The notes under the pieces: generated by a model
Seen by the model: the letters and a program-made list of their open reading frames with translations, nothing else
Databases searched by the model: none
Told to the model about the DNA's origin: nothing
Position numbers and translations under genes: made by a program
Shown: piece after piece, positions 1 to 1,162 of the stretch
Layout of the letters: the number at the start of each line of letters is the position of its first letter
Position numbering within the stretch: the first letter of the stretch is position 1
Assembly (NCBI GenBank): GCA_000004985.1
Contig: GG739521.1
DNA length: 1,162 nucleotides
From: Naegleria gruberi
Lineage: Eukaryota
Reading direction: 5' to 3' (one strand)

Positions 1-44
1 ACATGATATATAATAATATCAATTTTTTGAGGTACCCAACTCCC

Positions 45-76
45 GAACGGCTGCGATTCAGACGGTTCCGTAATTG
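45..76 (+). repeat. Direct repeat copy A: GAACGGCTGCGATTCAGACGGTTCCGTAATTG (core GCGATTCAGACGGTTCCG at 53-70)
   Basis: Aligns with 125-156 at about 22 of 32 identities. The 18-bp cores differ at only 2 positions. Copy spacing is 80 bp. Confidence 0.6.
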
Positions 77-112
77 CATAATCAATGAATGTATCGCGTA
101 GCTAACGTTTTC

Positions 113-123
113 AAAAAAAAAAA
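113..123 (+). repeat. Poly(A) homopolymer run, A11
   Basis: Read directly from the sequence. It lies immediately upstream of repeat copy B. Confidence 0.9.
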
Positions 124-124
124 T

Positions 125-156
125 GAAGGAGGGCGATTCAGGCGATTCCGATTAAG
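125..156 (+). repeat. Direct repeat copy B: GAAGGAGGGCGATTCAGGCGATTCCGATTAAG (core GCGATTCAGGCGATTCCG at 133-150)
   Basis: Same alignment as copy A. It also carries the internal sub-repeat GCGATTC twice and an AAGGAGG Shine-Dalgarno-like heptamer at 126-132. Confidence 0.6.
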
Positions 157-193
157 AGACCGGTGTCCATAGATTTAATTTGATTATAAATAT

Positions 194-220
194 AGTGACT
201 TTCGGAATTCACTTTTTTTA
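194..220 (+). terminator. Weak terminator-like element: AGTGA-(10 nt)-TCACT inverted repeat followed by T7
   Basis: A 5-bp AU-rich stem (194-198 and 209-213) lies immediately before TTTTTTT (214-220). The stem is short and GC-poor, so any termination would be weak. It could equally be an operator-like inverted repeat that contains the palindromic GAATTC. Confidence 0.15.
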
Positions 221-425
221 CATTCGATTTAGACGATTTAATGGTAGTATAATTGAGTATACAGGTCTATTATAAAGAATATATTGGGTAGAAACGGGTT
301 AATTTTTTTAATCGATTTTATGCATATATTACAAGAGGAATATAATGTTTTACAGTATTTGGTTATTTTAAAATCGGCTAGAAATGAAGTGAGGACAAAA
401 ATTTTAAAAAATTTCAGTCAAAAAT

Positions 426-578
426 ATGGTCATATTTATCAGTAAACTATATCTTGTGGATTTATATATTAATAGATTTTTCGTTTTTGACACCTCTATT
501 GTAAACACTATAAGATTATTTATTTATAGTTATTTCCATATCTACTTTCGAGTTCATCGACCCCCCCGAAATGTCTGA
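426..578 (+). CDS. Small ORF, 50 codons (MVIFISKLYLVDLYINRFFVFDTSIVNTIRLFIYSYFHIYFRVHRPPRNV); probably a chance ORF
   Basis: Hand translation from the ATG at 426 to the TGA at 576-578. No Shine-Dalgarno sequence upstream. The I/F/Y/L/N-rich composition is what AT-rich DNA encodes by default. It overlaps the promoter-like elements and crosses the compositional boundary. Confidence 0.07.
   Translation: MVIFISKLYLVDLYINRFFVFDTSIVNTIRLFIYSYFHIYFRVHRPPRNV
487..514 (+). promoter_or_regulatory. Sigma70-like promoter: -35 TTGACA (487-492), 16-bp spacer, -10 TATAAG (509-514); predicted TSS about 521, reading into the GC-rich domain
   Basis: The -35 hexamer is a perfect consensus match, the spacer is 16 bp, and the -10 matches 5 of 6 consensus positions. 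Caveat: AT-rich DNA yields promoter-like hexamers by chance. Confidence 0.3.
522..529 (+). promoter_or_regulatory. Alternative reading: archaeal/eukaryal-type TATA-like box ATTTATAG about 27 bp upstream of the GC-rich onset
   Basis: The TATA-like octamer is centred about 26-30 bp upstream of the C7 run and compositional switch at about 556-561, which matches archaeal TATA-to-TSS spacing. This applies only if the source organism is archaeal or eukaryotic, which I cannot determine. Confidence 0.12.
561..567 (+). repeat. Poly(C) run C7 marking the AT/GC compositional boundary
   Basis: TCATCGA-CCCCCCC-GAAATG. G+C content jumps from about 23% to over 55% within the adjacent blocks. Confidence 0.9.
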
Positions 579-588
579 ACTTCAGTTC

Positions 589-951
589 CTAACCTTGCGG
601 ACAGCAGGATCCTAAGGGATTACCCTCATCGAGGGTATCAACGCCCTTCGGAGCCCCCAATGGGTCAACCACCCGTTGGGGCCTGCTGTTCACACCGGGG
701 GTCGGTAACCCTCCCCGCCTGATGAAGGGCGGTGGGCACCCCCAGCCCTTGCGGCTGGGAGCCAAGGCAGCGCGTAACTGCGGGGCGCTGCTAACCAACC
801 AACCAAACCTGACCCGCCACCAGCCAACCAGCCCACCAGCCAGCCAACCACCAGCCACGCGCCCTCTGGCCCACCCAGGCCACGCGTGCGGTCGAGGCAC
901 CCTACAGCCAGCCGGCAGAACCCACGGCCATTCCCACGGACAACGGTCCAA
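589..951 (-). CDS. Probable spurious ORF (120 aa, the only ORF in the supplied track); not a credible protein
   Basis: The translation has about 13 Trp in 120 residues (about 11%, against about 1% typical) and is dominated by W/R/G/P/A. That is exactly what the reverse complement of the CCA/CAGCC low-complexity tract produces (TGG codes W, GGC/GGT codes G). It has no recognisable domain and overlaps the hairpin cluster. Confidence 0.05.
   Translation of the reverse strand: MDRCPWEWPWVLPAGCRVPRPHAWPGWARGRVAGGWLAGGLVGWWRVRFGWLVSSAPQLRAALAPSRKGWGCPPPFIRRGGLPTPGVNSRPQRVVDPLGAPKGVDTLDEGNPLGSCCPQG
621..637 (+). other. Hairpin TACCCTC-ATC-GAGGGTA, 7-bp perfect inverted repeat
   Basis: Reverse complement of TACCCTC is GAGGGTA; the loop is 3 nt. 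Confidence 0.6.
643..654 (+). other. Stem with UUCG tetraloop motif: GCCC-TTCG-GAGC
   Basis: C646:G651 closes the TTCG loop. G643:C654 and C644:G653 extend the stem with one mismatch. C(UUCG)G is a classic stable RNA tetraloop if the + strand is transcribed. Confidence 0.35.
697..713 (+). other. Hairpin GGGGGT-CGGTA-ACCCTC, 6-bp stem including one G:U pair
   Basis: Pairs are 697:713, 698:712 (G:T), 699:711, 700:710, 701:709 and 702:708. Confidence 0.4.
715..732 (+). other. Hairpin CCGCC-TGATGAAG-GGCGG, 5-bp stem and 8-nt loop containing TGATGA
   Basis: Reverse complement of CCGCC is GGCGG. The loop contains UGAUGA, which resembles a C-box or k-turn motif but is a weak signal on its own. Confidence 0.4.
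741..759 (+). other. Hairpin CCCAGCC-CTTGC-GGCTGGG, 7-bp perfect stem and 5-nt loop, of the CAGCC/GGCTG family
   Basis: Reverse complement of CCCAGCC is GGCTGGG. It has the same stem core as the terminal tandem hairpins GCAGCC-TTTT-GGGCTGC. Confidence 0.6.
767..791 (+). other. Hairpin GCAGCGC-GTAACTGCGGG-GCGCTGC, 7-bp perfect stem and 11-nt loop
   Basis: Reverse complement of GCAGCGC is GCGCTGC. Partly competes with an alternative CCTTG/CAAGG pairing at 747-767. Confidence 0.55.
791..860 (+). repeat. C/A-rich low-complexity tract of degenerate CCARCC/CAGCC microsatellite-like repeats; G/T-rich on the minus strand
   Basis: CTAACCAACCAACCAAACC...CCACCAGCCAACCAGCCCACCAGCCAGCCAACCACCAGCCACG. 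CAGCC occurs at 821, 837, 841 and 852. The minus strand reads ...GGTTTGGTTGGTTGG with many GG tracts. Confidence 0.8.
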
Positions 952-1015
952 CCCGCTGCCAGTCCTGACCCCAGGGCTGTCCAGGGAGCCTCCCGCGTGT
1001 GTGACCCGGGAGCCT
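854..1015 (+). repeat. Cluster of short closely spaced direct repeats: GCCACGCG twice (854-861, 879-886), CCCACGG twice (921-927, 933-939), CCAGGG twice (971-976, 981-986), GGGAGCCT twice (984-991, 1008-1015)
   Basis: Read directly. Copy spacings are 25, 12, 10 and 24 bp. This is consistent with low-complexity GC-rich spacer or repeat DNA, not coding sequence. Confidence 0.6.
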
Positions 1016-1059
1016 AGGAGGGCCCCCCAACCGTCCGGCCCAACCGCTGCCCCTGGGGC

Positions 1060-1067
1060 CGATTCAG
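1060..1067 (+). repeat. Third occurrence of the CGATTCAG octamer (CCGATTCAGATA), inside the GC-rich domain just upstream of the tandem hairpin array
   Basis: The exact 8-mer is shared with 55-62 and 135-142. Three copies of one 8-mer in 1.16 kb is unlikely by chance, with roughly 0.02 expected per additional copy. Confidence 0.45.
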
Positions 1068-1074
1068 ATACCTC

Positions 1075-1162
1075 AACCGCAGCCTTTTGGGCTGCCCACA
1101 GCCAAACCGCAGCCTTTTGGGCTGCCCAGATCCTACCAGCCTACCACCGCAGCCCTTTGGGC
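1075..1162 (+). repeat. Tandem array of hairpin-containing units AACCGCAGCC-TTTT-GGGCTGCCCA: copy 1 at 1075-1098, copy 2 at 1105-1128 (identical), variant copy 3 at 1145-1162 (CCCTTTGGGC) truncated by the window end
   Basis: The spacing between copies 1 and 2 is exactly 30 bp, with a 6-bp linker CAGCCA. The spacing between copies 2 and 3 is 40 bp. Each unit contains the inverted repeat GCAGCC/GGCTGC with a T-rich loop. The array continues beyond position 1162. Confidence 0.75.

Follow-up and report, generated by a model that had tools for sequence, protein, structure and literature searches.

The 5′ ETS of yeast is 700 nt long and scaffolds UTP-A, UTP-B and the U3 snoRNP in the small-subunit processome. 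Extrachromosomal rDNAs of protists, such as the circles of Entamoeba histolytica and the linear molecules of Didymium, Physarum and Tetrahymena, are high-copy nucleolar replicons that combine rRNA genes with a repeat-laden spacer; in Entamoeba, the preferred replication origin adjoins the rRNA promoter (PMC10285105). The rDNA plasmid of Naegleria gruberi (CERE) shares this layout but has a single cistron on each circle, and its origin has been narrowed only as far as a fragment (636 bp; PMC12845041). The plasmid is represented by records AB298288 (strain NEG-M; Maruyama & Nozaki 2007) and MG699123 (strain EGB; Mullican et al. 2018, PMC5805870). Plasmids of 14,007 and 14,128 bp have been published, and the G+C-rich regions were reported to be hard to sequence (PMC5805870). 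In the published records, the stretch considered here is labelled 'non-ribosomal sequence' with a hypothetical ORF, and neither a 5′ ETS nor a transcription start is marked. Our literature search found no paper mapping the RNA polymerase I (Pol I) start, promoter or 5′ ETS in Naegleria, and a 2026 paper describes the sequences governing rRNA transcription as little known.

Here we present an analysis of a 1,162-nt stretch of N. gruberi DNA (the window) in which AT-rich sequence gives way to GC-rich sequence at a run of seven cytosines. The window belongs to CERE. The reading that we consider probable is that the junction is the upstream edge of a 5′ ETS running into 18S, with Pol I possibly starting at the junction or slightly upstream of it. 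The features of the window are as follows.

1–220, + strand: last 220 nt of a 371-nt direct-repeat unit, non-ribosomal spacer (match to the copies in locus L006)
221–560, + strand: unique AT-rich spacer, ~25% G+C, directly before the GC block (composition, folding)
491–507, + strand: CACCTCTATTGTAAACA, candidate upstream promoter element (pattern recurrence)
552–709, + strand: predicted first structured domain, 158 nt (minimum free energy (MFE) against shuffles)
557–567, + strand: compositional change point and C7 run, the latter at 561–567 (change-point fit; identical in 10 assemblies)
561–1162, + strand: GC-rich, C-skewed block, continuing 272 nt past the window to the 18S 5′ end at window-equivalent 1434 (locus comparison)
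722–1162, + strand: first 147 codons of a 173-aa 'hypothetical protein' ORF (BAF74738.1, AUH25139.1; residue identity)
793–857, + strand: C/A-rich microsatellite-like tract, (AACC)n / (CCAGCCAACC)n (Tandem Repeats Finder)
1075–1162, + strand: three copies of a short hairpin repeat, AACCGCAGCC(T/C)TTTGGGCTGCCC, starting at 1075, 1105 and 1145, the third of which leaves the window

A piece of the Naegleria rDNA plasmid

Its sequence assigns the window to the ~14-kb circular extrachromosomal rDNA plasmid of N. gruberi, of the NEG-M/EGB type. It is 99.2% identical to loci L012, L013 and L016 and 99.9% identical to L014 (window positions 7–1162 correspond to L012 1–1156 at 99.2% identity). Its ORF at 722–1162 agrees with BAF74738.1 (UniRef A7BJ61_NAEGR, 'hypothetical protein [Naegleria gruberi]') in 147 of 147 residues and differs from AUH25139.1 by one mismatch; likeness to AB298288 and MG699123 was judged by ORF product and organization. 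Rfam matches to eukaryotic SSU, 5.8S and LSU rRNA are present in L006, L012 and L016, co-linear with the + strand of the window, and L005 carries its eukaryotic 18S–5.8S–28S genes on its minus strand. In the flanking loci, a single 18S–5.8S–28S cistron on one strand adjoins the spacer. The loci of the window also share with the published CERE (PMC5805870) a homing-endonuclease-like ORF downstream of 28S, a 371-bp repeat and an ORF upstream of 18S. The sequence of L006, taken from a 23-kb contig, recurs exactly every 13,799 nt; this fits a circle or a tandem array, which the assembly cannot separate, and circularity is taken from the literature (PMC5805870). The sequence is already known (in GenBank from 2007), and such a feature is usual in rDNA and holds no new biology.

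The AT-rich side consists of two parts. The 371-nt unit is tandemly duplicated in L006 (8756–9126 and 9129–9499, 98.7% identity), both copies are matched by window positions 3–220, and a repeat of 371 bp is the longest one described in the EGB plasmid of N. gruberi (PMC5805870). Logan contig starts at window positions 177–213 were considered as transcript 5′ ends and rejected: the 371-nt repeat ends at this point, and assemblies built with short k-mers break there. The remaining 340 nt are unique and cannot be aligned with the corresponding sequence of other lineages.

The compositional junction

A maximum-likelihood fit placed a single change point after base 557 (2-lnL support, 544–596), at which G+C rises from 0.287 to 0.668. 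The log-likelihood ratio of 86.3 is far above chance (maximum of 10.5 in 500 base shuffles). The earlier note had described a step from ~29% to ~67% G+C at a C7 run, with C-skewed sequence beyond it, and this description is borne out: G+C is 28.7% before 557 and 66.8% after, the run is present at 561–567, and the base make-up of 561–1162 (C 40.5%, G 26.2%, A 19.4%, T 13.8%) makes the skew real. The note's switch 'within about 10 bp' was too abrupt, as G+C in 20-nt bins climbs from 0.15 (521–540) through 0.40, 0.60, 0.50, 0.50 and 0.50 and attains 0.70 only from 641. Its view that no gene lies on either side is half true, given that the 173-aa hypothetical ORF is annotated from 722 and that 18S begins 272 nt beyond the right end of the window.

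A sharp compositional step could in itself mark the edge of a foreign or mobile GC-rich element or an assembly chimera, both of which had been proposed, and the step alone speaks for them. The junction, including the C7 run, is unchanged across 10 independent assemblies (NCBI, JGI, ENA and Logan samples) and is therefore not an artefact, which refutes a chimera. Against a mobile element, there are no terminal inverted repeats, flanking direct repeats or target duplication, no transposase or integrase is present, the ORF has no Pfam domain, and credible coding capacity is lacking. BLAST of the window against phage and plasmid collections, which contain no eukaryotic plasmids, returned no match, nor did two exact-pattern scans of viral contigs. 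Moreover, a GC block occupies the same site in four lineages. We give a foreign element or a chimera practically no credence. A bacterial sigma-70 and terminator scan was set aside as irrelevant to a eukaryote.

The GC block is the sole GC island in the 8-kb spacer (66–71% compared with 18–49% elsewhere, in 200-nt windows). The outcome that the note had named as refuting its proposals, an ordinary repeat structure like that of an rDNA spacer in a known eukaryote, is essentially what is seen here, with the difference that the plasmid is not mosaic in general and has a single island.

The GC block as a putative 5′ ETS

The 18S gene of L012 begins at position 1428 in the same orientation, which puts it 873 nt downstream of the junction. 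The order downstream is GC block, ~200 nt at 47% G+C, then 18S, with no AT-rich gap between them. In three other Naegleria-like lineages, a GC block also separates an AT-richer spacer from the same 18S-proximal leader, with a G+C content of 60–73% (45–61% in lineage C) and a length of 0.5–1.8 kb. Across lineages, only the ~270 nt adjoining 18S are conserved (74–83%); neither the GC block nor the junction can be aligned, and a start nearer 18S is therefore also conceivable.

The onset of sense-strand-specific folding is the junction. Positions 550–712 have an MFE of −77.6 kcal/mol compared with −52.3 ± 4.4 for dinucleotide shuffles (z = −5.74), none of 200 shuffles being as stable. In the predicted fold, 552–565 (including five C of the C7 run) pairs with 696–709 (GGGGGTCGG...) and encloses a small hairpin (577–588) and a branched stem (596–693), so that the C7 run is modelled as the 5′ arm of the helix closing the first 158-nt domain. 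The homologous window of L016 at the junction has a z-score of −7.59 in the sense and −3.95 in the antisense direction, and sliding windows detected a second sense-biased region at −350 to −126 (−4.3 and −4.6 versus −0.6 and +0.2). Positions 1–549 fold no better than shuffles (z = +0.30), 221–560 contains no significant RNA fold (sliding-window sense z from −1.98 to +2.04), and the middle of the GC block does not fold beyond shuffles. Sense-biased folding downstream of the junction was found in two of the three other lineages; lineage C gave no folding signal. Strain variants are 98–100% identical and differ by 3 substitutions in 663 nt, too few for a covariation test. In lineage D (91–96% identical, with variation mostly in repeats), three one-sided G–C to G–U changes that keep pairing and one compensatory pair were seen among 114 pairs, again too few to judge covariation.

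This pattern bears on a further proposal, namely that a structured RNA begins at the junction and stands out as a GC island from an AT-rich, possibly thermophilic genome. Its core is retained, as the block lies on the sense strand directly upstream of 18S and folds from the junction onwards; the host, however, is a mesophilic amoeba, and the RNA would be a precursor leader and not a separate stable RNA gene. The RNA-gene GC islands of AT-rich hyperthermophiles are likewise structured RNA regions that are distinct by G+C and have a sharp 5′ edge, but those are mature stable RNAs, whereas the Naegleria block belongs to a mesophilic eukaryote, has no Rfam match and would be part of a precursor. 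At E ≤ 10, the best Rfam scores in the window were 8.9–17.1 bits against gathering scores of 37.8–90, so no family was reached, and ARAGORN found no tRNA or tmRNA. An exact scan of genome contigs with the 21-mer of the hairpin repeat returned only isolated chance hairpins in Akkermansia and Bacteroidales, without further similarity.

From what the sequence is, where and in which orientation it lies with respect to 18S, the lack of a second island, the folding signal and the recurrence in related lineages, we infer that the block is transcribed and that 561–1162 is the upstream, rapidly evolving portion of the pre-rRNA 5′ ETS. The + strand is the rRNA sense strand, and 1–560 is AT-rich non-ribosomal spacer, made up of the repeat tail followed by the 340 nt of unique sequence. 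The GC block, from 557–561 onwards, would be the upstream part of the leader that continues unbroken into 18S and constitutes the 5′ ETS of the only rRNA operon. As elsewhere among eukaryotes, Pol I would transcribe this leader, which would fold into stable helices during its synthesis and scaffold early small-subunit assembly, before being cleaved away and degraded. Like eukaryotic 5′ ETSs, the Naegleria block is located directly upstream of 18S on the sense strand, is ~0.9 kb in length and contains strongly folded helices, and its 18S-proximal part is conserved while the distal part evolves fast and contains repeat expansions. As a putative 5′ ETS, it has an unusually steep contrast with the neighbouring spacer (29% versus 67% G+C).

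Some observations would suit a non-transcribed spacer, in which the block serves, for example, as an array of enhancers or upstream promoters or as a replication fork barrier, or is a by-product of expanding repeats and biased gene conversion, with Pol I starting no more than ~270 nt before 18S. Cross-lineage conservation ends abruptly at about −273, block length varies from 0.5 to 1.8 kb even inside one lineage, and the block holds repeated hairpins and microsatellite-like repeats of variable length, as is typical of intergenic spacers: the tract at 793–857 differs in length between strains (variants of +15 and +27 nt), and lineage D has an analogous (CCAGCCAGACC)n tract of variable copy number. 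Sense-biased folding is nevertheless present both at the junction and over −350 to −126, spanning the supposed start; the block passes into the conserved leader without an AT-rich, promoter-like gap; and variable GC-rich expansions are common in the transcribed spacers of other eukaryotes. We therefore regard a non-transcribed block as unlikely, although it is the rival to which we give the most weight.

The block could, alternatively, be a protein-coding gene for the 173-aa hypothetical protein (BAF74738.1 / AUH25139.1). Its ORF is uninterrupted in every variant, and the differences in length of +15 and +27 nt preserve the frame; however, the loci were found partly via the ORF itself, which biases them towards intact frames. 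No homologue beyond its own lineage was found among 5.8 billion proteins, even though these included the GC-block ORFs of other lineages, which lie on either strand. An open stretch of at least 173 codons occurs in 26% of dinucleotide shuffles of the block, the observed 216 is reached by 5.9%, and the opposite strand has an open stretch of 183 codons. The product, encoded at 65–70% G+C, is of low complexity and rich in P, A, G and T, unlike the genes of the AT-rich host genome. The annotated ORF is probably a by-product of composition and not a real gene, and we consider a coding function very improbable. A look-up of a 120-aa ORF on the minus strand gave no record.

The possible Pol I start and promoter

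If the block is a 5′ ETS, the Pol I start would lie at the junction or a few tens of nucleotides upstream, and the promoter presumably within 221–560. The junction is possibly at or near this start. The narrower proposal, that the junction is the initiation site itself and that the core promoter, including CACCT..TGTAA.CA at 491–507, occupies the ~120 nt before it, is tentative and in our estimate has rather less than an even chance of being correct. The pattern CACCT(N0–4)TGTAA(N0–1)CA, which was defined post hoc, occurs once per locus, on the sense strand only, 76–117 nt before the junction in lineages A, C and D. Lineages C and D have an exact 15-mer in common at this element in spacers that are otherwise unalignable, and L012 and L016 carry two substitutions within it. 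An unbiased 10-mer search for a motif common to the four lineages at their junctions gave nothing significant, 14% of shuffles doing equally well. We take 491–507 as a weak lead to an upstream promoter element.

A start well upstream of the junction, for example near or in the 371-nt repeats (window positions below ~220), would place the junction inside the 5′ ETS and not at its beginning. In rDNA, spacer repeats commonly carry duplicated promoters. The motif GATTC(A/C)G, found in the window at 55–61, 135–141 and 144–150, is strand-specific and clusters 0.4–3.7 kb upstream in lineage A but 84 nt (lineage B) and 187 nt (lineage D) from the junction; with a fixed distance between motif and start, the start in lineage A would be placed upstream of the junction. 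Arguing the other way, the 340 nt before the junction have no folding signal and are more divergent between strains than the GC half (~7 versus 2 substitutions between the window and L012), and the candidate element keeps its short distance from the junction in three lineages. A distant start thus seems quite improbable to us, more so than a non-transcribed block.

The preferred reading, a leader that begins at or close to the junction, delimits a probable 5′ ETS and narrows the search area for the Pol I promoter. The 'hypothetical protein' upstream of 18S on N. gruberi plasmids is, according to this reading, most likely a compositional artefact within the pre-rRNA leader, and a 'knife edge' from AT to GC in a metagenomic contig can belong to a eukaryotic rDNA leader and not to a mobile element or a thermophile RNA gene. 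For Naegleria vectors, a current bottleneck is formed by promoters and regulatory sequences of plasmids, and builders of transfection vectors report lacking the Pol I promoter. If the junction is indeed the Pol I start, the sequence before it would provide a testable promoter candidate for high-copy Naegleria expression vectors, including those for the pathogen N. fowleri.

Origin of the window

By its sequence, the window is a piece of the circular ribosomal-DNA plasmid (CERE) that N. gruberi carries extrachromosomally. A 22-mer taken immediately to the right of the junction between AT-rich and GC-rich sequence had an exact match in one metagenome/WGS record, VFQN01005947.1 (L005, 14,434 nt), the minus strand of which aligns across the entire window at 97% and encodes eukaryotic 28S, 5.8S and 18S rRNA together with a GIR1 branching ribozyme. 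Further contigs were retrieved through two proteins that they encode, the ORF of the GC-rich block and an endonuclease-like ORF of the spacer. The open frame of the window (ATG at 722) matches BAF74738.1, 'hypothetical protein [Naegleria gruberi]', at 147/147 residues; we take that protein to be the one encoded in AB298288, the record of the NEG-M rDNA plasmid. A single residue separates the window frame from AUH25139.1, presumably the counterpart in MG699123, the record of the EGB plasmid. Among the rDNA loci fetched for comparison, DNA identity to the window is 99.2% for L012, L013 and L016 and 99.9% for L014, and L006 (from a 23-kb contig) shows an exact self-repeat with a period of 13,799 nt. 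The CERE assignment rests on the ORF identity, the DNA identity to relatives and this period. The period fits the published N. gruberi plasmid, a 14-kb circle with a single rRNA cistron, 8 kb of non-ribosomal spacer containing repeats of 34–371 bp, and one ORF each downstream of 28S and upstream of 18S (PMC5805870). Neither Rfam nor ARAGORN detected anything in the window, searches of phage, plasmid and viral collections returned no match to it, and its repeated hairpin 21-mer, scanned once against a genome collection, produced nothing but chance matches.

Two ORFs of homing-endonuclease type occur among the fetched loci, one in an 18S intron and one in the spacer:

L005 13282–14434, minus strand: 18S intron that combines a GIR1 branching ribozyme (202.7 bits) with an ORF of 254 aa for a His-Cys-box homing endonuclease (PF05551)
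L005 6341–7408, minus strand, and L006 3327–4382, plus strand: free-standing spacer ORF of 351–355 aa, downstream of 28S, with the zinc-binding loop domain of homing endonucleases (PF05551)

GIR1 and a homing endonuclease ORF are the two parts that characterise twin-ribozyme group I introns; GIR1 is not known outside such introns in the rDNA of Naegleria, its heterolobosean relatives and the myxomycete Didymium. The 18S gene is uninterrupted (2,020 nt) in L006, which is 98% similar to the window, and in the window-type loci L012 and L016; intron presence is polymorphic among very close plasmids (L005 versus L006, L012 and L016). The spacer ORF shares 81% identity with N. gruberi EGB AUH25140.1 and 58% with a third variant, and is intact in several lineages, whereas the EGB paper considers it a likely pseudogene (PMC5805870).

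The compositional step and its annotated ORF

A maximum-likelihood single change-point model of the window places the change after base 557 (support interval 544–596), with 28.7% G+C to the left and 66.8% to the right (log-likelihood ratio 86.3, against a maximum of 10.5 over 500 shuffles). The AT-to-GC shift described in the earlier note is real, if slightly softer than the sharp step claimed: G+C is only 40–60% across bases 541–640 and attains 70% from 641 on. The right half is C-skewed, as had been noted (C 40.5%, G 26.2%, A 19.4%, T 13.8%). A homopolymer lies at the step:

Window 561–567: C7 run

The segment 503–567, junction and C7 run included, is identical in ten assemblies (NCBI, JGI, ENA and Logan samples), which refutes the proposal that the junction is an assembly chimera. 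Within 500–1162, these assemblies vary by substitutions at 502, 568 and 940, and otherwise only in a C/A-rich microsatellite at 793–857, where bases are substituted and the length differs by +15 or +27 nt. A mobile element, also proposed earlier, is unsupported: the GC block is bounded neither by inverted repeats at its termini nor by flanking duplications, and Pfam detected no protein domain in its ORF. Over one full plasmid circle, the spacer has 18–49% G+C in 200-nt windows except for one island at 66–71%; the plasmid is therefore not mosaic in general. This sole island is joined to the rRNA genes on their 5′ side, falling to ~47% G+C in the final 200 nt ahead of 18S.

The ORF annotated in the GC block could be read as a real gene, its frame being open for 216 codons. 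We regard it as a compositional artefact, because 5.9% of dinucleotide shuffles of the block match this length and 26% reach 173 codons, the opposite strand is itself open for 183 codons, the product is low-complexity with no Pfam match, a search of 5.8 billion proteins returned a same-lineage cluster only, and ORFs called in the GC blocks of other lineages lie on either strand. In the microsatellite, (CCAGCCAACC)n (columns 335–388 of alignment A1), each length difference between strains consists of two separate indels that jointly leave the annotated frame open.

Position, folding and recurrence of the junction

Window positions equal L012 positions plus 6, and 18S begins at L012 1428 on the same strand as the window; the junction therefore lies on the sense strand of the rRNA, with the 5′ end of 18S 873 nt downstream. 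It is directly preceded by 340 nt of unique AT-rich sequence and, before that, by a 371-nt direct repeat that is tandemly duplicated in the L006 variant and within the last copy of which the window begins. GATTC(A/C)G, a motif to which a protein may bind (as an enhancer, terminator or fork barrier), occurs at window 55–61, 135–141, 144–150 and 1061–1067 and across L006 6173–9422, frequently doubled as GCGATTCAGRCGATTCCG. CGATTC(A/C)G is found 13 times on the rRNA sense strand and once antisense in one 13.8-kb circle, with 11 copies in the spacer 0.4–3.7 kb upstream of the junction. GATTC(A/C)G also lies 84 nt before the junction in lineage B and 187 nt before it in lineage D.

Bases 550–712 are predicted to form one closed domain, in which 696–709 is the partner of 552–565, a segment that takes in five C of the C7 run. 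Its minimum free energy is −77.6 kcal/mol, versus −52.3 ± 4.4 for 200 dinucleotide shuffles (z = −5.74); the entire AT half is no more stable than shuffled sequence (z = +0.30). In a sliding scan of 150-nt windows along the homologous locus L016, z was −7.59 sense versus −3.95 antisense at the junction, and −4.3 and −4.6 versus −0.6 and +0.2 between −350 and −126 from 18S. Spacer windows upstream of the junction ranged from −1.98 to +2.04, and mid-block windows, microsatellite included, showed no folding excess. Sense-strand-biased stability therefore starts at the junction. The earlier suggestion of the 5′ end of a structured RNA was near the mark, but the feature belongs to an rDNA plasmid known from a eukaryote, is unremarkable there, has been sequenced before and offers little that is new. 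Three tandem-like hairpin copies, 30 and 40 nt apart, extend from window 1075 to 1162 and on to window-equivalent 1174, each with a 6–7-bp GC stem and a U-rich loop (GCAGCC-UUUU-GGGCUGC); a similar hairpin lies at 740–757.

Loci of three further Naegleria-like lineages, fetched through a spurious ORF within the 18S 5′ end, are 92–97.5% identical to the window's lineage over the first 120 nt of 18S. All three have the same layout, with ~200 nt at 38–48% G+C beside 18S, then a GC-rich block (60–73% G+C, or 45–61% in one lineage; 0.5–1.8 kb), then AT-richer spacer. Only the final ~270 nt before 18S can be aligned between lineages (74–83% identity), the GC blocks and junctions being lineage-specific in sequence. 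Folding is biased to the sense strand downstream of the junction in two of the three. Lineage D has a long conserved hairpin and a (CCAGCCAGACC)n tract of variable copy number; substitutions in its predicted helices are mostly G-C to G-U, with pairing kept only in RNA of the sense strand, and are too few to count as covariation. The tract resembles the (CCAGCCAACC)n microsatellite. Within one non-gruberi lineage (L018, L019, L022 and L023, upstream of 18S), the block is between ~1.3 and 1.95 kb long, a spread that implies large expansions of internal repeats.

A candidate start for rRNA transcription

The best-supported interpretation is that the 5′ external transcribed spacer (ETS) of the plasmid rRNA operon has its upstream edge at the junction. 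The polymerase I promoter would lie within the AT-rich spacer, initiation would occur at or shortly before base 557, and the GC block would be transcribed. Alternatively, the block could be non-transcribed spacer and the start lie ~270 nt before 18S, where conservation is lost abruptly; however, strand-biased folding spans that supposed start, and the block passes into the conserved leader without an AT-rich gap. A further rival sets the start far upstream, making the junction internal to the ETS.

CACCT(N0-4)TGTAA(N0-1)CA (window 491–507; L029 1970; L038 81), a pattern defined post hoc, is a weak lead to what may be a promoter element for polymerase I. In three lineages, each locus has a single copy, confined to the sense strand, 76–117 nt before the GC junction, and two lineages with otherwise unalignable spacers have an exact 15-mer in common. 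The element carries two substitutions in the closest NEG-M-type loci, and an unbiased motif search at the lineage junctions was not significant. The literature searched yielded no mapping of a Naegleria start site, promoter or ETS, and according to a 2026 paper little is known of the sequences that control transcription of rRNA on the CERE. The remaining interest of the junction is as a precise candidate, and one that could easily be tested, for the site where polymerase I starts on the Naegleria CERE.
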